A stretch of 63,769 nucleotides of DNA, the filler included, from Collodictyon triciliatum (Eukaryota), in assembly GCA_043381765.1 (NCBI GenBank). It is 7 parts of 7 records of this genome, joined end to end, with 100 filler letters (N's around TTAATTAATTAA, not from the genome) between each part and the next. Parts side by side here need not be neighbours in the genome. Positions count along the whole stretch, not along the records: positions 18,824 to 28,284 come from JBHJMP010003076.1; 6 more parts are not named here. One strand, 5' to 3'. A program made the position numbers and the translations under genes. Positions within the stretch are counted from its first letter, which is position 1. Each line of letters begins with the position of its first letter. Shown in pieces: positions 316 to 57,233 of this stretch. A model generated the notes under the pieces. That model made no database searches. It saw only the letters and a program-made list of their open reading frames with translations, and was not told the DNA's origin.

Positions 316-3300
316 TCACTCTTCTTCCTGGTCTGCAATCGATAGATCGTCGTCTTCAATTATATCTTCGCAGTCATCTACAAGACTATCTGCCTTTTCT
401 CGCCATAAAGCAGCACTTTCGGCGCTCTTTTCCACAACCCATCCATTGTCAAAACATTTCGCCATCATATGAGCCTGGAACTTGGTAAACTTACCTGCCC
501 TACAATATTCGACAAAATCTTCATCAAATGGAACTGCCCCAACCGAAAGAAGGAGCTTTTTGTTAAATTGGCTCAACCCGTGGACATTTTCCAGTCGGAT
601 ATTCCCACCGTCTAATTTTCTCGGGCCAACACTACGAATGAACCCCCCAGAAACGATCGAATAGGCTCCCAATAAGTTGAATGCGTCACTGGTTTTGTGT
701 ACAATCGCGATTCTTTCGTCGGTGTTTTTTTTCATCACTAGATATCTATCTCGCCTGTAAGTCACATCTGATTTTTGCAAGCAGTAAACTTCATTTCGGG
801 CCACATAATCCCAAATACGAATGGTTTTGTCGGCACTGCTAGACACCAACCATTGCTCTCCATTTGGCCCCTGCACAGCAAAAACATGGTCGACAACATT
901 TGTGTGACCTTGCAGTATTCCTAGTTCATTTGCTGTTTCCACATCCCAGATTCGGATTGTATGGTCTGCGCTGCCAGATGCCAACCACATTTCTCCATTA
1001 GGCCCTTGGACAGAAGAAATGGATTTAATAGCGTTTGTGTGGCCTTCAAGTGATTTTACCAGAGATCCATTTGCCACGTCCCAGATGTTTATACACCCGC
1101 TTTTGGCTCCAGATACCACCCAATTTTCTCCAGCAGGCCCAGATAAATTCAAAATCAAACAGAAGCGATCTTCACTGCTTTCAATTCTCGTGGTGAATAC
1201 GCCGGCAGCCATATCCCAGATGTGAATTGTCTTATGGTTATCGCATGAAGCCAACCAATTTTCCCCGAGGGGTCCCTGGATTCTGCAGATACTCTTGATA
1301 CCATTCCTGTGGCCTTCCAAGGCCTTGACTTCATCTCCACTTGCCAAATCCCAAATTCGAATTATATTATCTCTATAACCACCGGCAGAAGCCAGCCAGT
1401 TTTCCCCATGAGGTCCTCGGATTGTGCAAATGCTAGAGATGGCATCTTTATGGCCTTTTAGCGCTTTAATATGATTACCAGAAGATAAATCCCAAATGCA
1501 TATGACCGTATCTTTACTTGCAGTAGCTAGCCATTCCTCTCCGCTTGGTCCTTGAATTTGACAAGCGCCCGTGATTAATTCCTTGTGGTTACCATAGAGG
1601 CCAATTTGGTCATCAGATATCAATTCCACAATATCGATCTTATTCCCAGAACCTTCAAGAGCCAACCAGTGCTCTCCATTAGGGCCTGGGACGTTGCAAA
1701 CCTTCTGCAATGGCCTTGTATATGAATGCTTGGATTGAATAAGGATCCCGGTAGTTGCATCCCAAATGTGTATGTTTCCATCATAGCTCCCAGAAACCAA
1801 CCAGTTTTTTTTGTTTGGGCCTTGCAAACAGCATAGAAAAGTGACGCCCTCTGAATGACCCTCCAACACTTTGATTTGGCTCTGTGTGGCTAGGTCCCAT
1901 ACACATACTGTAGTATCTCCACTTCCAGAAGCCAGCCAACTCTCCCCATGAGGTCCTCGGACAGAACAAATCCTTGTGACTTCACCTTTGTGCGATTTAA
2001 GCTGAATCATCGACTTTCCTGAAGAAACATCCCATATGCGAATTGTTTTATCATCACTTCCAGAAACCAGCCAGTTTTCTCCGTGAGGTCCTTGAACGGC
2101 ACAAATGCAAGTAACATAATCTGAGTGCCCATCCAGTTTCTTCACCAAGCTCCCAGACATCATATCCCAGATGCGTATTGTCATCAAGTCATCACTAATA
2201 TATGGAAAGTGGCAGGCTGCTGCTAGCCATTGCTCTCCATTCGGCCCTCGAATACCACATGTGTGCGCCACGGCAAAAAAAGGTTCTTGAATGACCTTAA
2301 TTTGGATGCCAGTGGCAATATCCCAGATTCGGATAGTTTTATCATTTAGTCCACCCCCTGAGACAAGCCAGTTTTCTCCATTGGGGCCATGAACATTGCA
2401 AAGACTTATAACAGCTTTAGTGTGTCCTGTTAGTATCCTTATCTGGTTCCCTGTAGCGATATCCCAAATACGTACTGTCTTGTCTGTACTCGCAGATGCC
2501 ATCCATTTTTCCTCATTTGGGCCGCTAATGCAGCAAATAGCCCATATACTTTCAGTGTGTCCACTGAAGGCCCGATGACATCCTCCAATAGTGACGTTAT
2601 TCATATTAGTGTTATTGAAATTGGAGTCTCCCAGTGAGGAGTTGCTCAATATGACACCTTCCAAATTTGCACCAGTAAAATCGGCTCCATCAATTACTGA
2701 GTTGCTGAGATTAGCATTTGGAATATTTATGTGGGACAGGTCCATACCAGCGAAAGACATTCTCATAAAATTTAAGAATGTGATTGCGTCAGATGCTGCT
2801 TTTGATTTTGTTCCGTCGTTTCTCGATGAATAAACGATTTTTAACAAAGCGGATGATATTTGTTCTCTGTTCCATGGTTCATTCGATTCAGTGTTTCCTA
2901 AGTTTTCCATGATGAACTCTCTTACTCTTGTAAAGGCGTGAGGCTCTTCGCATCTCCCAATCTCGCGCGAAATCATTGATAAATACTCGCACGAGTTTAG
3001 AGTTTTTGGATGGACCCATCCAAGACTTTGTTGTAGCCTATCCTTTATTGTGCTCCAAAACACAAATGCCTCCTGGTATTGTCTTAATTTTATGAAAGAC
3101 TGATTGATCTCTTCGCAAACATGCCAAATACCAACATTATCTATTCCATGAGTGTCTTCCAGACTTTGAATTAGAGTTTGATAGAGCAGAATGGCTAGCT
3201 CGTATTCATCCTTGCTTTTCATGAGTCGAATGATATTATCCACCTGTGTACCATCTTTGATGCATACTATCGTATTTGTTTTCTTACGAACCACTGCGGC

Positions 3301-3422
3301 CTTCTGGAAATATTCGACTACTTGATCCAATCTAACAGACAGGTGAGGAATTACAAAAATAATATTAAGCATTTACAAATCGAACGAAAAAGAAAAAAGG
3401 GCAACAATACCAATAATAATAA

Positions 3423-9313: not shown

Positions 9314-9413
9314 NNNNNNNNNNNNNNNNNNNNNNNNNNNNNNNNNNNNNNNNNNNNTTAATTAATTAANNNNNNNNNNNNNNNNNNNNNNNNNNNNNNN
9401 NNNNNNNNNNNNN
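9314..9413. other. Artificial contig spacer (44N-TTAATTAATTAA-44N)
   Basis: Identical 100-bp spacers at 9314, 18724, 28285, 37689, 47094 and 56497. TTAATTAATTAA gives stops in all six frames. Confidence 0.97.
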
Positions 9414-10866: not shown

Positions 10867-11104
10867 NNNNNNNNNNACCTTGTAGATATGTGCCACACTG
10901 GCCGACACAGACACCATCCGGTCAGAGTACTGGCAGAAGCGCCGCTCACAGCAACTCACCCGCAGGCTCGAAGCGCTCCACCGAGCATAAAGAAACCCGA
11001 CCGAGAACACAAGCAAACTCTCCCCACCTGCCGACCCGTCGACACACTCACACCCACACACACACACACACACACACACAAAAGAGCGCAGCCTGTCTTC
11101 TTCG

Positions 11105-12430
11105 ATGCTCTTCTCTCTGCGCCTTCTCCGCCCGGCGATCTTCGTTCTACACCGCTCACTCCCAAGCCAGCGCCCGCCGTGGAAGCCGCTCGGCCCTGCC
11201 CAAACGCCGAGCTCTGCTCTTACTCAGTGGAGGCGCACGCCGCAAAAGCGCCGAGCAATTGTTGCAGCGCGCGATCCAGATCCTGTGCTGAAGAAGCTGC
11301 TCTCTGTGCCGCCACCTGAAGAGCGCGAGGCCGAGGAAGAAGGCGCTGTGCGTCCGGGCTTTCTGAGTCTCGTCAAGGCTGGTGAGTTACAGATCTGCAC
11401 GCACTGCGGGTTTGCGGTGCTTTCGCGGAGTCGGGGAAGAAACGATCGCGGGTGCAAAGCGCCCGGCCATCAGCAGCGGAACTCGGCCCATGTCTTTGTG
11501 CCACTCGACGAGGTTGCGCTTGCGCTCAGGTGGCTGCCCCAGGTCAAGCGTGGCCCCAGGGAGAAGAACATCATCCGCGAGTATTTTGCTCTGACGCGCT
11601 CCTCTACCAGCCTGGGTGCTGGGCTCGAGGATGAAGGTCGTGTGTCTTCGGGTGCTGAGTTTGGTGGCCAGGGGATTACTGCGCAGCAAAGGGATTCACC
11701 ATCGCGCAGTTACTCTGATGCACAAAGGAATACTTTGCAACAAAGGGATTCACCATCACGCAGTTACTCTGATACACAAAGGATTACTGCGCAGCAAAGG
11801 GATTCACCATCGCGCAGTTACTCTGATACACAAAGGAATACTGTGCAGCAAAGCGATTCACCATCGCGCAGTTACTCTGATGCACAAAGGAATACTGTGC
11901 AGCAAAGCGATTCACCATCGCGCAGTTACTCTGATGCACAAAGGAATACTTCTCAACAAAGGGATTCACCATCGCGCAGTTACTCTGATGCACAAAGGAA
12001 TACTTCTCAACAAAGGGATTCACCATCGCGCAGTTACTCTGATACACAAAGCAATACTTTGCAACAAAGGGATTCACCATCACGCAGTTACTCTGATACA
12101 CAAAGGAATACTGCGCAGCAAAGCGATTCACCATCGCGCAGTTACTCTGATACACAAAGGAATACTGTGCAGCAAAGCGATTCACCATCGCGCAGTTACT
12201 CTGATACACAAAGCAATACTTTGCAACAAAGGGAGACATCACCACGCAGTTACTCTGATACACAAAGGAATACTGTGCAACAAAGGGATTCACCATCGCG
12301 CAGTTACTCTGATACACAAAGCAATACTTTGCAACAAAGGGAGACACCAAAACATCGTGATTCACCCCCCAATCGGAATAACTCTCAAGCGGGTCGCAAG
12401 AAATATCATAACGATTATTTAGATCATTAA
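11105..12430 (+). CDS. Orphan intronless protein, 441 aa: basic N-terminus, Cys/His cluster, ~12 x 18-aa repeats
   Basis: Long GC-rich ORF from ATG to TAA; CTHCG...C...H...H cluster; C-terminal half is (TxQQRDSPSRSYSDTQRN)x~12. Confidence 0.6.
   Translation: MLFSLRLLRPAIFVLHRSLPSQRPPWKPLGPAQTPSSALTQWRRTPQKRRAIVAARDPDPVLKKLLSVPPPEEREAEEEGAVRPGFLSLVKAGELQICTHCGFAVLSRSRGRNDRGCKAPGHQQRNSAHVFVPLDEVALALRWLPQVKRGPREKNIIREYFALTRSSTSLGAGLEDEGRVSSGAEFGGQGITAQQRDSPSRSYSDAQRNTLQQRDSPSRSYSDTQRITAQQRDSPSRSYSDTQRNTVQQSDSPSRSYSDAQRNTVQQSDSPSRSYSDAQRNTSQQRDSPSRSYSDAQRNTSQQRDSPSRSYSDTQSNTLQQRDSPSRSYSDTQRNTAQQSDSPSRSYSDTQRNTVQQSDSPSRSYSDTQSNTLQQRETSPRSYSDTQRNTVQQRDSPSRSYSDTQSNTLQQRETPKHRDSPPNRNNSQAGRKKYHNDYLDH
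11671..12350 (+). repeat. 54-bp coding minisatellite, ~12.5 copies
   Basis: Unit gggattcaccatcgcgcagttactctgatRcacaaaggaatactNNgcaNcaaa repeats with period 54. Confidence 0.95.
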
Positions 12431-18723: not shown

Positions 18724-18823
18724 NNNNNNNNNNNNNNNNNNNNNNNNNNNNNNNNNNNNNNNNNNNNTTAATTAATTAANNNNNNNNNNNNNNNNNNNNN
18801 NNNNNNNNNNNNNNNNNNNNNNN

Positions 18824-19930
18824 GAAGTCTGCTTTACACACAAGACACAACCCCCGAAGGCTCTCAATTATGCCGGATGTGACGCAGTCTGCTTCACAAG
18901 ACACAAGACACGCCCTCGAAGGCTCTCCACTATGCCGTGATTACGACGCAGTCTGCTTCACAAGACACAACCCTCGAAGGCTCTCCACTATGCCCGAATA
19001 CGACGCAGTCTGCTCCACACACACGCCCTCGAAGGCTCCCCACTACGCCGAACGTCGACGAAGTCTGCTTCACACACACAAGACACACAGAGGCTCTACA
19101 CTATGCCGAACGTCGACGCAGTCTGCTTCACACACAAACCTCGAAGGCTCTCCACTACGCCGGATGTGACGCAGTCTGCTTCACAAGACACAACCCTCGA
19201 AGGCTATCCACTATGCCGTGATTACGACACAGTCTGCTCCACACACACAAGACACACAGAGGCTCTACACTATGCCGGGATGTGACGAAATCTGCTTTAC
19301 ACACAAGACACAACCCCCGAAGGGTCTGCACTATGCCGGAATACGACACAGTCTGCTTCACACACACAAGACACACAGAGGCTCTACACTATGCCGGGAT
19401 GTGACGAAATCTGCTTTACACACAAGACACAACCCTCGAAGGCTCTCCACTATGCCCGAATACGACGCAGTCTGCTCCACACACACAAACCTCGAAGGCT
19501 CTCCACTACGCCGAACGTCGACACAGTCTGCTCCACACACACAAGACACACAGAGGCTCTACACTATGCCGAACGTCGACGCAGTCTGCTTCACACACAC
19601 AAGACACACAGAGGCTCTCCACTACGCCGAACGTCGACGAAGTCTGCTACACAAGACACAACCCCCGAAGGCTATGCACTATGCCGGAATACGACACAGT
19701 CTGCTTCACACACAAGACACACAGAGGCTCTACACTATGCCGGGATGTGACGAAGTCTGCTTTACACACACAAGACACAACCCTCGAAGGCTCTCCACTA
19801 TGTTGGGATGAGACGAAGTCTGCTTCACACACAAGACACGCCCTCGAAGGCTCTCCTCTATGCCCGAATACGACGTAGTCTGCTTCTCACACACAACCCT
19901 CGAAGGATCTCCACTACGCCCGAATACGGT
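18824..19930. repeat. Modular minisatellite, ~19 units of ~53-64 bp
   Basis: Unit: gtctgctYcac(ac)n(aagacac)n-[aaccctcga|acag]aggctctccactatgcc-[variable 7-10 nt]-gacNNN. Confidence 0.95.
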
Positions 19931-20059
19931 AACTATAAGTCAACTACAACCAGAAATTATATTTTTTTGCTTTGCAATTGGCACTTTGTTTTGCGCAAGC
20001 ACATACTTCGTTGACGTTTTTTTGTCATAATTCGTACGGAAGAAGTTCATGCGTGCTTA

Positions 20060-21285
20060 AAGGGGAAAAAATTGAATATCTCCTGTCAAAATAGAGCAGT
20101 CTGTGCCAGATATGGGGAACATTCGAAGCCCAATTCCCTGTTTATTGAGCAACGGAGTCTACTTCACACACAAATACTGCTAAAGCTCTGCACTATGCCG
20201 AATACGAAAGCCGTAAGTCTTAAGCAATCAGATGTTTTATTAACTTCACTTCGAGCACTTTGATTTTCATTTGCAAAAACCTAGTCGATGAACTACATTA
20301 TAATTAATACGGAAGAAAGGTATATTCATGCACAGAGCATCAAAATTGAATATCTTCTGTCAAAATAGTGCGATATGTGTCAGTTATGGGGAACATTCGA
20401 AGCCCAATTGCTTGTTTATTGAGCAACGATGTCTGATTCACAAGGCACACAACCCTCAAAGGCGCTCCACTATGATGAATACGAAAACCGTAAGTCTTAA
20501 GCAATCAGACATATTATGCTTTCTCTTCACTTCACTTTGAGCATTTTGTCTTTTTACTCCACACACTTAGTGGATGTTTTTTTATTATAATTCATATAGA
20601 AGGCTTATTCGTGCATAGAGCATAAAAATTAAATCTCTCTTGTGAAAATAGTGCATTCTGTGTCCGACTATGGAACATTCGAAGCCTAATTCCCTGATTA
20701 TTGAGCAACAAAGCTGAATCGCGGACAAACACAACCCTCAAAGGCTCTCCACTATGCCGAATACGAAAACCGTAAGTCTTAAGCAATCAGACATATTATG
20801 CTTTCTCTTCACTTCACTTTGAGCACTTTGATTTGCATTTGCATACTTAGTCGATGTTTTTTTATTATAATTATTCATATAGAAGGTTTATTCATGCATA
20901 AAGCATAAAAATTGAATTTCCTTTGTGTAAATAGTGCATTCTGTGTCCGACTATGGAACATTCGAAGCCTAATTCCCTGCTTACTGAATAACGAATCGTG
21001 GACAAACACAACCCTCAAAGGCTCTTCACTATGCCCGCATACGAAAACCGTAAGTCTTAACCAATCAGACATATTATGCTTTCTCTTCACTTCACTTCGA
21101 GCACTTTGTTTTTTTACTTGCATACTTAGTCGATGTTTTGCTATAATTCATATAGAAGTTTATGCATGCATAGAGCATAAAAATCGAATTTCTATTGTGT
21201 AAATAGTGCATTCTGTGTCCGACTATGTGAACATTCGAAGCTCAATTCCCTGCTTATTGAGCAACAAAGTCGAATCGCGGACACG
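20060..21285. repeat. ~280-bp tandem satellite, ~4.5 copies
   Basis: The block aatagtgcattctgtgtccgactatggaacattcgaagcctaattccctg...gtaagtcttaagcaatcagac recurs with unit starts near 20071, 20346, 20627, 20911 and 21181. Confidence 0.9.
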
Positions 21286-22050
21286 AGACTCAACACATTC
21301 CCGTCCATGTGCAGACGCGAAGAACTTCAGGTGAGTATCCCATTAATACAACCATTATTATCATTAAGAGTCTCTTATTTTCTCCATCATTACCATTACA
21401 ACAATAGAAAACACTTGAGCATTTTTTCAGCATATCAATAACCAAAGAACCCATAATAATGTGTCGACAATCCATTTTCCAATGTGCATTCTCCAGTTTC
21501 TGATTGCAGAATTTCGGCCACTCTCCAACCGCAGCGACGCCGGACTTAGCACAAAGAGACGCATCCGTGCAGGTGATTCAGGAAACCCACGAACATGCAG
21601 CAACTCCTCCGCACCAACGCGACTCATGTGGGCACCCCCAGTATTCCCAGCCATATGGCCATTCCCAGGTCTTTGGTGACGCCCGGTGACGCACGCGACA
21701 AGCACCCGGCTATTCCCAAGACTTTCGATGCAAGAGGTCAACCTTGGCTGTGGCCAACCCCGAACCGGTGAATTTCCAAGGAAGCACAAGCACACAAGTT
21801 CTGCACAAGTCGTCTTCTCTGAAAAATCCGCGGGCCTTTGCGGGATATTTAACCTCGTCTTGTCGAAATCCTTCCTTCTCTTTTCTTATTCACAAAGTAC
21901 TTTCTGGTTTCCGTGTGCACAACCCTACCGTCCTGACTCGAGTAATTCTGTCCTGTGTGATTGTGAAGTTCACTCATAAAACAAATATATGATGTGTATT
22001 GTATTGACACATAGCCAGTACTCATATATACACAGACGGAATCTGTCCAG

Positions 22051-25000
22051 ATGTCCGACTACCTCACACCTGCCCAAGTGGATGAGCTTTTGGAAGAAGT
22101 CCGGAAACTCTCCAGGGATCCTGATATTGCCAGTCTAAAACGCTCCACATCTCTGAATCTCGGTGAAAAGAATCTGTCATCTGTGCCGCCTGGTGTTTTT
22201 CTGTTGACTAGTCTGAAAGAATTGTGGCTTGAAAACAATAAGCTGTCATCGCTGCCTGCACAAATATCGTGTTTGACTGGTCTCACATATCTCGATGTTC
22301 AAAACAATAAGCTGTCATCACTACCTGCACAAATATCGTGTTTGACTGGTCTCAGTGTTCTTGTTGTATGTGACAATCCGGTATGTTTTTATTCATATAT
22401 TATATTATGTTTATGTTTAGAAGAAAATGACTGACAACGATACACGCAGATGGAGGAGCTTCCAGCACAGATCACAGCACTCACAAATCTGAAAGAACTC
22501 TACATAAAATATACATACACACAAACCATAAAGAGAGCCCCGCGTGGCATCTCAAATCTCCCCTGCTGGAACAACACAGGATACTATGACTACCAACACA
22601 TCCGCGCTCTGCAGCTCTACGACCCCGTAAGCACACATCCACCCCCAACCCCCACATACACAACACAGGACACAACTAACATAACCCTAGGTCGATACCG
22701 CAGCTGAAGCTAAAAGAGCTGAAGAGGCTAAAAGAGCTGAAGAAGCTAAAAGAGCTGAAGAAGCTAAAAGAGCTGAAGAAGCTAAAAGAGCTGAAGAAGC
22801 TAGAAAAGCTGAAGAAGCTAAAAAAGCTGAAGAAGCCAAACAGAAACTGCTGCTCGAAAGACAGGTAAATGAACAACCTAAAATAAAACCACCATAATTA
22901 ATAATAATCTTTCGGGGATCTCACAAATATGAATATTAGACCCAGTTCGTGCAGGCCAAAAAGACAGTCCACCCAGGTTTACAATAAATCCATCACTGAA
23001 AGCGAAAGCAAAAAAATAAAATAGTTGTGGATTTTGTACTAACGACAACTACACAGACCAAACAAAGACAGAATACAAACCGTTCGCGGAGGGAGAGGTC
23101 TTCGCCTTGCAAACACCCGTCACAGGAGAGTAAGCAAGCGTCTAAGATCCATTCGATTATGAACACAATATTGGTATATATGGAAGCAAAAAAAAAACTC
23201 TCACTGAGCCCTTCATAACAGCGCATTCAAGGTCAGCAGCACAGATGGCGAATTCTTCATCGAAAAGATCCACGCCAAGGAGCTCAGCCCAGGGTGTTGT
23301 GGAAATGCCTCGCCCAAAGGTGAAATGCTGTTCATCACTATTGAGGAATAAAAAACCCTTTCTACTTTTCTGGTTGCCTTACCCGTTACCTTTTAGACCA
23401 ACAAAAGAGAAGACACAAATTGGCCAAAAAGGAAAAGCCAGCCCAGCAACTACAAGACGAAGAACCTCAAACAAACACCATAGACACACCTGTATTCATC
23501 CATTCTTTCGATCTGAGGACCCGTTTTCAAAAACAATAAAATAAAGCAAATACTAACTTAGCTTGATTCTAGAGCGAACAAGAAGCCAACGTCTCTGAAG
23601 CCGAAATCAATGCCTGTCTCAGCGGATGCCTCTGCGGCGTCTGCGTCAGCCAGTATAACAACCCGAGTTTCCTGCCATGCCAACACACATTCTGCTCCGG
23701 CTGCATAAAGACAGTCACCGACTCAAACGAAGAACCGCCGCTTCGATGCCCGCTATGTGCCGAGCCAGCCTACGTGGATGGGAACACGGTTGGTGAGTTA
23801 AAGGCGTATGAGTTTGACGCGGCCTCTCTGGGAGGCATGAACGCCGGCCTTGAGGCTGGGAAAGCCACAGCAAGCGTTGTGGTGATCAAATGCAAAGGGA
23901 AGACCAAGGGTCTGAGCTGTCAGAACGACGCTACTCACTACTGCACCGTCTGTGGTGAAAGAGGATTATTTTGCGAAACGCACAGTGATATGCATGCAGA
24001 TTCGAACGATGAAGACCACATCATAAAGTAATATCTAATTTTCGACATACTGATGTATAATAAAGTCATACGAGTTTTTACCTTGGCTATATTTCAAACA
24101 CATTCTCACATTCACTTTCGTCCAGTAAACTCGAGTTCGGAGCCGTACCGAGTACAAAGAAAACGGAAAACTGCCCGATCCACAAGAATATCCCAGTTGA
24201 ATACTTCTGCCCATCCTGCCCCGAGTCTCCATTGAAGTGTGCAAAATGTGTACTGGATGACCGCAATCATTTAGACAAACACATAGAACTTTCACAACAA
24301 GGATTCGACGCCAATTCTATTCTAGCCACCAAAATCCAAGAGCTCCGCAAGTCAGAGACCAAACTAGCACCGAATATTGCATCAATCCAGCTGAAGATGA
24401 GAAAGGTTAGCTATTTCAAAATATTTTATTTCCGTCTAAAAAAATCTGAGTTTGCCAGCATAAACATCACAATAACAACCTTGCCCATATAGGAAGCCGA
24501 GCAGCACCAGAAGAGAGGCAACGAACTCGATGCATTCATCAAAGAACTTGAAGCACAAGTCGGCCAGTTTAAGGCTGAGTCGAAGAAGGAGGTAAGCTCA
24601 ACTTTCTCGCGTTTTCCAGAGTTTTTTTTAAAAAAAAAAAGTATGCCATATTCCACAAGGATATTAATACCTACAATATAACCCAGCTCGAAGCGTTGAA
24701 CGAGTCCATCCTTGGCCCGCTGAGGGACTCGCAGAACAGCCTCATGAACGAAATGCGCCGAATCCACATTGCCAAACGAACCCTGCGCAAGCTGATTGAA
24801 AAGCCCGAAGGCGAGCGCTCCCTGATCCAGATGGGCAACGCACTGCGCTTCGCCAACCAAGTCCTTTATTCCAAATACGATACACCAATTGAGATTGCCC
24901 CACTTACCTTTGTCTCGAGACTGCCGCGAACCATCCTGGACGACCTCAAGAGCATGAACGAGACATTCATGTTTGGCCTGAGCACTGCTGAGGAAGCAGA

Positions 25001-25907
25001 AGGAGCAACGAAAGAAGAGGCCAAGACGAAGACAGAAGCGCTTCACTCGATCTCCGCCTCGCCAGCAAGCATCAAGGCTCCCAGCGCCTCGATTGACTCG
25101 TCGACTGGTGATGCCCGAATCGAGTGTCCGTGGGCGGTTTGCGTGCATCCACGGAACGGTAACATCTATGCGACGGACGAAGATTCGCAAAAAGTTCACA
25201 TTTTTAGCAAAGACCTCAGCCATATTTCCTCCCACCACACCGGACTCATCATCCCAAAGGCTCTTCACGGGCCAAGAGGAATCGCCATCTCCAACGACGG
25301 TCTCATTGCGGTTGCAGACTGCGAAGGCCACTCTGTGAAGCTCTTCACCGACCAGCTCACGCTTGTCAAGACCATCGGCGGAAAGAAGGGTAAGGAGAAC
25401 GGCCAGCTCAATCGCCCATACTCGGTTGCTTTCGACAGTGAAGGAAACCTCTACGTGGCCGACTCTGGGAACCAAAGAGTCCAGAAGTTCGACAAGAAGG
25501 GCGCGTTTGTCTCTGTCATTGGAGGCGCGAGCGAAAGTGGCGGCTATATCAGCTCGCTTATCAATGGGGTCTGCGTTAATGAAGAGGACAAGCTCTTAGT
25601 TCTTTGCGCCGGCTCCGACAGAGTCCGCATCTTTTCAAAGGACGGTATTTTCGAAGCTGAAGTCAAGCTGGAAGTGCCAACAAGCGTCGAGGCCTGGTCG
25701 CATATTTTCCGCGCCTCTCCCGGTGTCTTTGGTGTTTGCGAGAACAAGACCGGGACAGTCGCTTTCTACAACTACCAGGGCACAGTTCAGCACCGCATCC
25801 TCTTGGACGGCTGCCTGGGCGCCTGCTTCGGACTCGACGGCACCTTCTATGCCACAAGTCTTTCGCTAAAGTCGGTCTCTGCTTTCTCTGCTGACAATTC
25901 CCAATAA
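22051..25907 (+). CDS. LRR - (AEEAKR)n - SH3-like - RING - B-box - B-box - coiled coil - NHL (TRIM-NHL-like E3 ligase with N-terminal LRR)
   Basis: Phase-consistent exons 22051-22380, 22450-22626, 22691-22864, 22940-22976, 23057-23129, 23222-23319, 23397-~23491 and 23573 onward. RING CGVC..PSFLPCQHTFCSGCI..CPLC; B-boxes (HYCTVC..FCETH..H; CPIH..YFCPSC..CAKC..H); NHL repeats (GPRGIAIS..IAVAD, LNRPYSVAFDSEGNLYVADSGNQRVQKF). Confidence 0.85.
22703..22835 (+). repeat. 18-bp coding repeat (AEEAKR)n
   Basis: gctgaagaagctaaaaga repeated ~7-8 times; charged single-alpha-helix-like linker. Confidence 0.9.
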
Positions 25908-26145: not shown

Positions 26146-28160
26146 GTTTTTTTTTTTTTTTTACCAGCTTTCATTTGGATACCCCATAAAAGATTCCCTT
26201 CATTCGATTCAAAGTGTAGCGAGGTTATGCCATACAAAGGGGCGAGATAGGTGCGCTTGGTAGAGCAAACGCGAGTAGGGGAATACACTGCTGCGAAGAG
26301 GCGAGCACTGGAAAGAAATTAGTGATAGCGAGTTGGTCAGGTGGGCGTCCCAACTGGTTGATTGGTTGCGTGGGTAGCAGGGGTTGGATGTGCTGTGGGA
26401 GTTATCTTACGACCCATTTCCACATCTCTCTTCGCTTGCGGTCAGAGTAGCGAAGAATGCGAGCGTGTTTCAGCAGGTTGTTCAGGAAGCTGTATTGCAC
26501 GAGGCTCTCAAGCCTGGCTACATTGATTTCTCGTTCGGGTGAATCATTAGAGCGAGAGAATGCACGCACACTCCATAAGGACCACATCATATGTCCCCTT
26601 GTGACTGTCCAGAGTATTCTAGAGTCGTGGGTCATTTGGTATTGTGGGCCAAACAGGATGTCAGATGCGCTGAGTCGGTTGGGAGCATAATCAAGCTCAG
26701 AGAGCATCTTGTGGGTAGACTCTGTCACTTTTTGAGCAAGAGAGCACTTCACAAATGTGTGTTCGATAGAGTCATCTCCACTATGGCGCATGGTGTATTC
26801 TGGAGAGGTCGTTGCTGCATGGACTACACGCGCACTTATCCACAGCTCTCTGTTGGAGATATTGAGAAGTAGGGCGCGGTGCTTCGGTAGTAGCTGAGGT
26901 ATACGGGCTTGCTTCCAGCTTTTGACTATTGGCGGGTCTATAATGCCTATGGTTTCAACCAAAAGACTCGTCTTCTCCGGTTTGTAAGAATTCAGTTGAT
27001 GAATTTATATCGAAACAGCTTGGAGCACGCCATGGCAACCGTGAATTGTGGAGAGTCCGGAGTAATGGACCGCCTTCGGTTCTTCAGGCGAAAGAAAAAT
27101 GGCGACGGCGCTCCGTATGAGATGAGATGTTGTGAGCGTCATTCTCCTTTGTTGTTCAGGACAGCTGTGGTTGAGGTTTGCATTCGAGGAGTGAAATATC
27201 GTTGCATTTTTCGGCGTTGCGAGGCTCCCATCCTTTTGGAAAGCGACTTGTTGCAGGATGAAGGAGCTGTTTCCTTGTTTCGACTTGATGATACGGGAGC
27301 TTTATGGTTTATCCCGGCAAGGTTGGCAAGTGGATGCTTCATTTAAAACCCTCATTTCCGCTCCGGGTTGAATCCCAAGATATACATAAAGGAGATTCAG
27401 TCCATAGTGACCAGGTGGGTGTTACGATGTCTCTGTCCTTGCGGCTCACCGCCGTGCTGCTTCTCCTCTACATCTTCTTTACTAGCCCCTACGTTTGCGC
27501 GTCTCTGTGAAAAGTGTTCATTGGTGCGTGGAAAAAGTTGTGGTGTGGTTCTCTGTTCAGAGGAAATGATGCTCGCGCTGGGGTGACAACACGGAGTCAA
27601 TCAGAGAATCCACCCACTCGGCAACCTTTCGGATGCCTGTTAGATTAAATGCGCTTATCCCTAAGCGAATCACTACATGTGACTTCAGGGAAGAAAATAT
27701 TCATTCCAGAAGAATGCTTGCTTCTAAAAACGACTGCTGTCAATGATGTTTTTATGGGTGTAGAGTGAGGTAGTCAACTAACCACGTATGGAAAATGAGA
27801 TGGCATTCCATTCTGCAGAGCCTGCTGAATACACATTGTGGTCAATTCCAAATCAGTCCAGCCGAGGAAACAACACCAAGAGCCGAATTTTCTTTCCAGC
27901 CCGTGGATTGTGCCTCTGCCTTTGATATAAGGTATTTCGCGTTTGTTGTCGCATCAGGGCACGAGGAAAAGTGTGAAGGAAAAGAGCGAGGGGAAATTCT
28001 GCCCAAAAGCGCGCTTGAGGCACAAGTGGATTCGCTTGGTTGGCATGGATGATTCTGGAGACATTTCCGCCGAGACTCTTCTCGGGAGACTTTTCCGCTG
28101 TCTGTAGGCTTACTGATTGGCCTGGCCGTCGTTCTTGCGATCACGTCCTGCCTGGCGCAG
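26146..28160 (-). mobile_element. Decayed LINE (L1/Tx1-like) ORF2 with zf-RVT-like C-terminus and poly(A) tail; RT core apparently deleted
   Basis: YVYLGI (~27370-27390), IGIIDP, DDSIEHTFVKCSLAQKV and HMMWSLWSVR motifs; poly(A) on the minus strand at 26146-26162; multiple stops and frameshifts; no YADD motif seen. Confidence 0.7.
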
Positions 28161-28284: not shown

Positions 28285-28384
28285 NNNNNNNNNNNNNNNN
28301 NNNNNNNNNNNNNNNNNNNNNNNNNNNNTTAATTAATTAANNNNNNNNNNNNNNNNNNNNNNNNNNNNNNNNNNNNNNNNNNNN

Positions 28385-37102: not shown

Positions 37103-38026
37103 ATTGCAGTGATTACCTGCAACTGAAATGGTGATTATTCTATGGGTATGATGTTTTCATTCTTTCGAGCCCTTATCAACTTCCGTGGCAAGTGTGAAGA
37201 GTTTTTCTGATGGTATTAAAAGATACAGTAGTGGGTGATGCGGGATTGAGTCGGTATTTTCCTCCAGATTACAAAAGATGTGGTTTTGAAGGAACCAATC
37301 CAATAATGGCCAATATAAATGCTTCCTGTCTATGAGACTAGCTGAATGTTTGCGGGTAGTGAGATGTGAGATGATATCCAAAGAGTCTGATGCTTGTTTA
37401 TCGTTTGTCAACACCCCAGGATACATGTATATTGCACTCTGAAAAAAAGTGGAATTTTTTTGAAATAAAAAAAAGGACAAATATGTTTGTTGTGGGCGGT
37501 AAGATGGCTTCGGGATAACCCCCAGACATTAATTGAATTGGGTCGTTTTCTTTTTCTTTTTTTTTTTGAGTTTTTTTGTGTTTTTTTGTGTTTTTTTTGT
37601 GTTTTTTTGTGTTTTTTTGTGTTTTTTTTGTGTTTTTTTGTGTTTTTTTGTGTTTTTTTGTGTTTTTTTGTGTTTTTTTGTGTTTTTTNNNNNNNNNNNN
37701 NNNNNNNNNNNNNNNNNNNNNNNNNNNNNNNNTTAATTAATTAANNNNNNNNNNNNNNNNNNNNNNNNNNNNNNNNNNNNNNNNNNNNTTTTTTTTTTTT
37801 GGTTTTTTTTTTTTGTGTTTTTTTTTTTGGGTTTTTTTTTATTGGGTTTTTTTTTATTGGGTTTTTTTTTTATTGGGTTTTTTTTTATTGGGGGTTTATA
37901 TTGGGGGGTTTATATTGGGGTTTTTTTTTATTAAGGTTAATAAAAAAAAATGCAACCTCGCTATTTTTCTTTTCTCCTCTTTTCATGGTAGTCTTGGATT
38001 ATTCACTTTGTAATTCTGCTCCGTAG

Positions 38027-47093: not shown

Positions 47094-47193
47094 NNNNNNN
47101 NNNNNNNNNNNNNNNNNNNNNNNNNNNNNNNNNNNNNTTAATTAATTAANNNNNNNNNNNNNNNNNNNNNNNNNNNNNNNNNNNNNNNNNNNN

Positions 47194-56475: not shown

Positions 56476-57233
56476 TTGTTTTTTTTTTTATTGTTTNNNN
56501 NNNNNNNNNNNNNNNNNNNNNNNNNNNNNNNNNNNNNNNNTTAATTAATTAANNNNNNNNNNNNNNNNNNNNNNNNNNNNNNNNNNNNNNNNNNNNAAAC
56601 ACCAAACCGCCCATTTTTTTTTCCCCTTCCTTTTTTTTTTTTTTTTTTTTTTTTCATTCTTTGCAAGCACCAAAATATCCCTTGATAGGAATTTCTTGAA
56701 CGATTGCATCCGCATCAAGGCCCAGTTGCTCGTGATATTTCATTCATGTACTCACCTGTACTCTTCCCTATCGTATTCCAGTCGTTCGCGCGCCAGATTC
56801 AAGCAATCGAAGACACCTTGTCGGGCTACTGATTCTCTTCTGCTCGATACAAATTGAGTCTGACTGCCTTGTGTGGAATAAAGCCACACCCCTGACGATT
56901 TTGATGGACGAAATTTGGCGCAAAGCACATAAGAACACGATTCAACAACAAAAACAAACAAACAAACAACAACAAACAAACAAACAAACAAAGTATGAAG
57001 TAGAATAACATAATGCAATAGCGCAATCAGAAGGAAAATCAATTCGGGCACATACGACTGAAAAAGACAATTTCATTATGTATCTATTCTATATGTTCGT
57101 TTCTCCTTATGTTATTCTCGCTCATGTAAATATTTGTTTCGTCGCTTATGTCGTCTGGAATGATAGATTGGTGAACCGCGCCTTATGCTATAAAGCTGTA
57201 CTTCAAAAATAAAAAAGGCGTGTATTCTCGGAT

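Follow-up and report, generated by a model that had tools for sequence, protein, structure and literature searches.

A 58-bp minisatellite inside a longer, 283-bp tandem repeat, upstream of an LRR-RING-B-box-NHL gene in Collodictyon triciliatum

Variant-repeat minisatellites, known from MVR-PCR, are arrays with units of 9-100 bp that fall into a few variant types and follow one another in interspersed order, as described in the excerpt considered here (PMC2599865). The same excerpt attributes their change to shifts of block boundaries, to conversion of single repeats, and to misalignment of sister chromatids with conversion of the SDSA type (PMC2599865). Candida glabrata carries compound minisatellites and megasatellites, whose long motifs measure 126-429 bp, lie in coding regions only, and are multiples of three in length, according to the portion of the account drawn on here (PMC2566889). 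In the rDNA intergenic spacer, promoter duplications and short imperfect "enhancer" repeats are found upstream of the gene promoter (PMC12326227, in excerpt). The locus described below shares traits with these systems and differs from each of them. Its array is a real minisatellite, non-coding and otherwise ordinary, and the sole notable feature of this array is that the origin of its unit can still be read next door.

The window, that is, the whole stretch of 63,769 nucleotides from C. triciliatum that was analysed, carries the array on its plus strand at positions 18824-19930 (1107 bp). Splitting at TCTGCT, which is invariant, delimits 19 units of 53-64 bp, which run head-to-tail from 18828 to 19930. 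The first unit (u01) starts at 18828, directly after a four-base remnant, GAAG, at an assembly gap; the final unit (u19) starts at 19879 and ends in ...GAATACG, with GTAACT following at 19929. TRF reports the array at a period of 58 with 17.8 copies (18902-19928, 75% matches) and again at a period of 119 with 9.5 copies (18824-19928). At up to three mismatches, AGGCTCTCCACTATGCC has 23 matches in the window, where 100 shuffles give an expectation of 0.06; 19 of the 23 lie in the array, each with at most two mismatches, and four in a neighbouring repeat. Both the unit length and the head-to-tail order agree with the range of about 9-100 bp given for minisatellites (PMC2599865, in excerpt).

The composition of the array is distinctive. 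With a GC content of 0.537, it shows a GC skew of -0.28 and an AT skew of +0.26, which bears out the strong C/A skew reported in a first-pass annotation of this DNA. That annotation had also called the units CpG-rich. They are indeed CpG-dense, and CpG is not depleted in them (observed/expected 0.97 vs 0.86 for the window), but the density is mainly a consequence of the higher GC content. CpG decay was rejected as the source of the unit variants: given this ratio, and counting variant states in the gap-free columns of 18 units, 17 transitions stand beside 16 transversions. A coding array was rejected as well, with unit lengths that vary, are not multiples of three, and keep no frame. Open frames on the plus strand of the array exist because of its C/A-rich composition, and a frame of 213 aa has no match among proteins of 117-373 aa.

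The array had been described as about 19 units that draw on a small alphabet of reused modules, and this description holds. Across the 19 units, the 7-nt stretch that follows TATGCC reads GAACGTC in five, CGAATAC in three, GGGATGT in three, GGATGT in two, GTGATTAC in two, GGAATAC in two, and GGGATGA in one; it is truncated in one more. The multi-base differences among these modules occur without intermediates. At the middle module, 13 units have ...CYCGA and the other six have ACAG, whereas the 5' part of the unit is a CA run interrupted by AAGACAC, which comes in 13 length variants. No two of the 19 units are identical. Two constant blocks had been claimed to frame the modules. Both blocks are present, but their constancy is limited: GTCTGCTYYACA is exact in 15/19 units and AGGCTCTCCACTAYGCC in only 6/19, the latter block having 11 variants and varying in 10 of its 17 columns. 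The position of the ATG in the ...CCACTATGCC block is held by ATG in 14 units and by ACG in five. Nor does a constant-variable-constant design describe the units, since the supposedly variable modules are drawn from six recurring variants, 6-8 nt long, rather than being unique inserts.

Every unit junction was previously thought to keep a mini-palindrome. The sequence in question, GACNNNGTC, is a conserved part of the junction and occurs at 16 of the 18 internal junctions, the other two reading GACGAAATC; as a meaningful palindrome it was rejected. Mini-palindromes of this 3-3-3 form are present in 51% of shuffled 58-mers, and GACNNNGTC is therefore no signal in itself. A perfect 8-bp palindrome, CGTCGACG, is restricted to four units of the GAACGTC type, where it arises at the unit junction (19053, 19111, 19574, and 19632). 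Speculatively, a template switch within such a quasi-palindrome might be a one-step source of the GAACGTC module.

The extent of the array is bounded by the assembly. An artificial contig linker (N44 + TTAATTAATTAA + N44; 18724-18823) cuts the array, and its second N run (18780-18823) directly adjoins the repeat, a gap that the earlier reading had missed. Because of this cut, the array has at least 19 units, and what stands to its left may come from elsewhere in the genome. The window as a whole is a chain of contigs joined by six identical linkers of the same composition, located at 9314-9413, 18724-18823, 28285-28384, 37689-37788, 47094-47193, and 56497-56596. Four of the six abut simple repeats, namely T-rich runs, a TCTTTG microsatellite, and the 58-bp array. 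It is repeats that drive the contig breaks, and the joined contigs need not be neighbours in the genome; annotators of this genome should be aware that a repeat lies behind the break at 18823.

The order of the units records duplication of blocks and exchange between units. Units u01-08 and u09-16 are 88.6% identical to each other, against 76-81% at lags 1-7 and 9-11, and u08-u09 resemble u10-u11 (98% and 91%). As a higher-order period, one duplication of eight units is seen, amounting to about 2.4 periods in the gap-cut array. A four-gamete test was applied to 22 informative two-state columns of 18 units, with u19 left out and gaps treated as a state; all four combinations are observed in 73 of 231 informative column pairs, and the Hudson-Kaplan minimum (Rm) is four exchange events inside the unit. 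GAACGTC and GGGATG(T/A) are each seen with both middle modules, and u14 is a visible chimera that joins a 5' half of the u13 type to a 3' half of the u04/u12 type. The claim that the array recombines is accordingly supported, with these incompatible pairs, at least four exchanges, and one chimera. The ACAG state, which is five bases shorter than ...CYCGA, is linked to CTCTACAC in five of its six units, and for this reason it is traced to a single event that was copied later.

These traits place the array close to the variant-repeat minisatellites. As in those arrays, few variant types occur in interspersed order, as the modules and the incompatible site pairs both show, and the mechanisms named for them fit the mosaic seen here (PMC2599865, in excerpt). 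In contrast to what the same excerpt describes, a single allele is at hand here, unit length varies through the internal CA run, and the source segment of the unit is visible next door (PMC2599865). Mean pairwise identity between units is 0.796 (153 pairs), similar to that between the copies of the adjoining 283-bp repeat (0.73-0.87), which indicates an old array without ongoing homogenisation.

Immediately downstream, a tandem repeat of 283 bp adjoins the array at 20045-21283 (TRF: 20067-21283, 4.4 copies, 82% matches). By alignment it comprises, on the plus strand, four full units, R1 (20045-20318), R2 (20319-20600), R3 (20601-20883), and R4 (20884-21156), and a partial fifth copy, R5 (21157-21283), which shares the first 127 bp of the unit and is 83-86% identical to R3 and R4. 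Repeat homology stops at 21283. The whole 58-bp unit aligns inside each of R1-R4, with a conserved CCGTAAGTCTTAAGCAATCAGA next to it. Furthermore, the last array unit and the 116 bp after it (19929-20044, plus strand) align with the 283-bp unit over its exon-like part and its tail, the 116-bp stretch being homologous to the part of R1-R4 that follows GTAAGT. For each of R1-R4, the observed local score against this stretch was reached by 0 of 500 shuffles. The array therefore lies inside an older, sixth copy of the 283-bp repeat (R0), at the very segment from which its unit stems, and the stretch at 19929-20044 is the tail of this old and diverged host. This nesting, which is directly observed, had escaped the first-pass annotation. 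The R0 tail is 0.61-0.66 identical to the 283-bp copies; among these copies, R3 and R4 reach 0.87, R1 is 0.73-0.75 identical to the others, and the copies proximal to the downstream gene are most alike.

The homology also gives the variants a direction. States common to R1-R4, namely ACAACCCTCAAAGG, TATGCC, and GAATAC, are the ones seen in units of the CGAATAC type, among them u19 at the array edge, and the ACAG, GAACGTC, GGATGT, and GTGATTAC modules are therefore derived. Outside the locus, the 283-bp block has no match elsewhere in the window or in metagenome contigs, and the 58-bp unit block has 0 matches in metagenome contigs, prokaryotic genomes, and viral contigs; as these collections exclude the genome of this organism, the null results say little about copy number. 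Neither sequence was found in the other scanned windows of this genome.

A comparison with C. glabrata is instructive here, within the limits of the excerpt at hand (PMC2566889). As in that yeast, a short and a long motif (here 58 and 283 bp) share sequence at one locus. Unlike the yeast repeats, both motifs here are non-coding by length, and the short array forms one block in one long unit and is not intermingled with the long motif (PMC2566889).

Each full 283-bp copy has an exon-like appearance. GTAAGT follows the homologue of the 58-bp unit in all four, and in three of them an ATG and five more codons run stop-free into GTAAGT in phase 0: R1 (MPNTKA, ATG..GCC, 20195-20218, GTAAGT at 20213), R2 (MMNTKT, 20472-20495, GTAAGT at 20490), and R3 (MPNTKT, 20754-20777, GTAAGT at 20772). 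The corresponding frame of R4 (MPAYEN and one further base, 21031-21055, GTAAGT at 21050) is out of phase through a one-base insertion. All four lie on the plus strand. The stretch from ATG to GTAAGT is among the three best conserved parts of R1-R4 (0.85-0.90 vs 0.69 overall). A GTAAGT in one 283-bp unit is not rare by chance, and because R1-R4 are duplicates of each other, the shared ATG, phase, and GTAAGT amount to about one observation.

What the unit may have been copied from is suggested by the gene that follows. On the plus strand, a partial intron-exon model at 22036-25907 encodes LRRs (22051-22380), a RING domain (23573-24031), a weak B-box (24064-24492), and NHL repeats (24579-25907), a domain layout that points to a product of the ubiquitin-ligase type. 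A candidate acceptor, acacag, is found at 22030-22035; the frame from 22036 is open, reads TESVQ, and runs into the ATG at 22051 (MSDYL...). Protein searches turned up nothing from the same organism with which the 5' end of the gene could be fixed, and the closest long relatives among the matches are generic LRR (39-53% identity) and NHL (24-39% identity) proteins. The gene also contains a coiled-coil repeat, (EAKRAE)n, of 18 bp x 7.5 copies at 22706-22840, so that its domain order of LRRs, coiled coil, RING, weak B-box, and NHL is TRIM-NHL-like with added LRRs. Just downstream of the gene, a minus-strand open frame of 200 codons (26402-27004) with a weak zf-RVT match (E 0.0049) is probably a LINE fragment.

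Between the repeat and the gene, the end of a putative mini first exon can be placed at 21307-21336 on the plus strand, where an ATG at 21307 opens eight codons (MCRREELQ) that reach GTGAGT at 21331 in phase 0. After GAGCAAC, the ATG is offset by 41 nt in this proximal exon and by 44 nt in the 283-bp unit. Similarity of 21284-21454 to the matching part of R1-R4 is not significant: shuffles reached the score for the sequence from 21284 onward in 53, 98, and 95 of 300 trials, and in 3 of 300 for a single piece of R2, 18 nt long. Thus, it is by position only that the proximal exon 1 can be equated with the unit. With this qualification, the 283-bp unit is probably a duplicate of the proximal upstream region that takes in a short first exon with an ATG as well as the beginning of intron 1, and the 58-bp unit would correspond to the leader-to-ATG part of that putative exon. 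For annotation, this means that the LRR-RING-B-box-NHL gene may begin with a short first exon that carries an ATG and lies within a tandem repeat. Within the presumed first intron, the segment 21424-21823 is richer in GC (0.49-0.56 vs 0.34-0.40 in its flanks) and holds a 152-codon open frame on the minus strand, which is without a Pfam match; the true promoter or 5' exon may lie in this segment.

Judging from the sequence relationships at the locus, we consider it likely that the array is a by-product minisatellite that has no sequence-specific role and was amplified from a piece of about 58 bp inside R0. Under this reading, the 283-bp repeat would have arisen by serial duplication of the region just upstream of the LRR-RING-B-box-NHL gene, and the piece in R0, a decaying distal copy, would then have been amplified in tandem, through replication slippage or unequal exchange between sister chromatids together with conversion of short tracts. 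If the amplified piece was the leader to just past the ATG, it follows that every unit has ...CCACTATGCC. Four ordinary processes suffice for the combinatorial look of the array. Slippage of the CA run would have varied unit length, one indel would have produced the ACAG type, blocks of units would have been duplicated at lags 2 and 8, and units out of register would have exchanged short tracts, by unequal sister-chromatid exchange or gene conversion. Clustered changes would also have altered the 7-nt stretch after the ATG, and the outcome would be a mosaic of few reused variants. Neutrality of the array is suggested by the absence of signals of function, and the mutational mechanisms, like the exon or promoter nature of the 283-bp unit, are presented here as plausible readings of the pattern.

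The alternative that survives best is a functional battery in which each copy supplies an alternative promoter and a mini first exon that is spliced to exon 2, in which case the array would be the long, ATG-laden leader of the most distal copy and would tune expression or N-termini. An ATG, a short ORF, and a phase-0 donor are found in R1, R2, R3, and R5, and even the last array units can be read from an ATG at 19860 to GTAACT at 19929 in phase 0. The open frame from 22036 and the good conservation of the ATG-to-donor stretch agree with this arrangement too. However, the copies decay with distance from the gene, from 0.87 between R3 and R4 through 0.73-0.75 for R1 to 0.61-0.66 for the R0 tail, R4 is out of phase, u19 has ACG instead of ATG, and units of 53-64 bp keep no frame. 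We therefore regard a functioning battery as rather unlikely. A stronger form of it, in which mini-first-exon modules, each with its own ATG, five to eight codons, and a phase-0 donor, feed exon 2, and in which the distal leader is a 1.1-kb ATG-studded minisatellite whose length and module order set the amount of the ligase, appears more doubtful still. If this were true, a putative immune-type E3 ligase of a deep-branching protist would have a "tuning knob" based on repeat length.

The rDNA spacer offers a different model for an array at this location. In Xenopus, the 60/81-bp repeats of the rDNA spacer share sequence with the promoter. At the present locus, AGGCTCTCCACTAYGCC or the CA-rich part of the unit might have been multiplied upstream of the gene as a protein-binding, enhancer-like array. 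The array is placed 2.1 kb before an ordinary protein-coding gene and stands in a row with tandem copies of the gene's proximal upstream region, a layout that recalls rDNA spacers with their promoter duplications and short imperfect "enhancer" repeats (PMC12326227, in excerpt). The likeness is one of architecture, with proximal upstream copies and short derived repeats upstream of a gene, and it comes from the layout alone; unlike an rDNA spacer, the window contains no rRNA match. A multiplied binding site is also difficult to reconcile with the variability of the block (10 of 17 columns, and 11 forms in 19 units), which makes such an array improbable.

It appears very unlikely that the array is the margin of a large subtelomeric or centromeric structural satellite which the assembler was unable to span. 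The array does run into a gap and contains a higher-order duplication of eight units, as such an edge might. But its units all differ, and a mean identity of 0.80 is unlike that of homogenised large satellites; the array sits within a local 283-bp repeat beside a gene, no telomere-type repeat is attached to it, and its unit is found neither elsewhere in the 63.8-kb window nor in other scanned windows of this genome.

The array had also been proposed to serve as a template for small RNAs, and covariance among its units had been suggested as a check. Four units folded as RNA show no gain in stability over 200 shuffles (z of 0.00 on the plus strand and -0.94 on the minus strand), and RNAalifold on the 19 units and R1-R4 yields three pairs at -2.39 kcal/mol with 0 compensatory changes. 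Thus, neither a fold beyond that of shuffles nor compensatory change, the two marks of a structured small-RNA gene, was detected, and the units have no stable or conserved fold. In Rfam, the whole window has nothing at gathering score. With a limit of E<=10, the region 18824-22100 yields only the snoRNA snR57 at 20805-20884 on the minus strand (E 3.4), a weak match of 22.9 bits against a gathering score of 50, which lies inside R3 and outside the array. A block of the 283-bp unit, GGAACATTCGAAGCC, has what we take to be a resemblance to a B box. Reading the unit as a tRNA-derived SINE or Pol III element nonetheless found no support, with 0 tRNA genes from ARAGORN and no tRNA match in Rfam. The exons of spliced leaders are kept identical between tandem copies. 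That the units or 283-bp copies template short RNAs, as in a small-RNA or spliced-leader-type gene array, is most improbable: a tandem exon-like piece with GTAAGT after it and a T run about 95 nt further on has the right outline, but there is no Rfam family at gathering score, including any described SL RNA family, no fold beyond shuffles, and no covariation, while the "exon" differs among R1-R4 (copies 0.73-0.87 identical) and the last 283-bp copy runs into a protein-coding gene.

The by-product minisatellite that we favour would be of small significance beyond this locus. It could nevertheless serve as a textbook case of minisatellite birth, with source segment, host repeat, and later block duplications preserved side by side. 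Should the repeat be transcribed, or vary in length between strains, it would become a candidate regulator of the LRR-RING-B-box-NHL gene.

Two other features of the window are worth recording. On the plus strand, a 54-bp tandem repeat of 12.5 copies with 91% matches (11673-12349) lies within an open frame of 479 codons (10991-12430), where it encodes an 18-residue period rich in Ser, Gln, and Arg (…QRNTVQQSDSPSRSYSDA…) that is without a Pfam match. On the minus strand, an open frame of 1018 codons (316-3372) encodes many WD40-like repeats with a recurrent "GPxGExWLAS" insert, preceded by an N-terminal stretch that resembles pentapeptide repeats.
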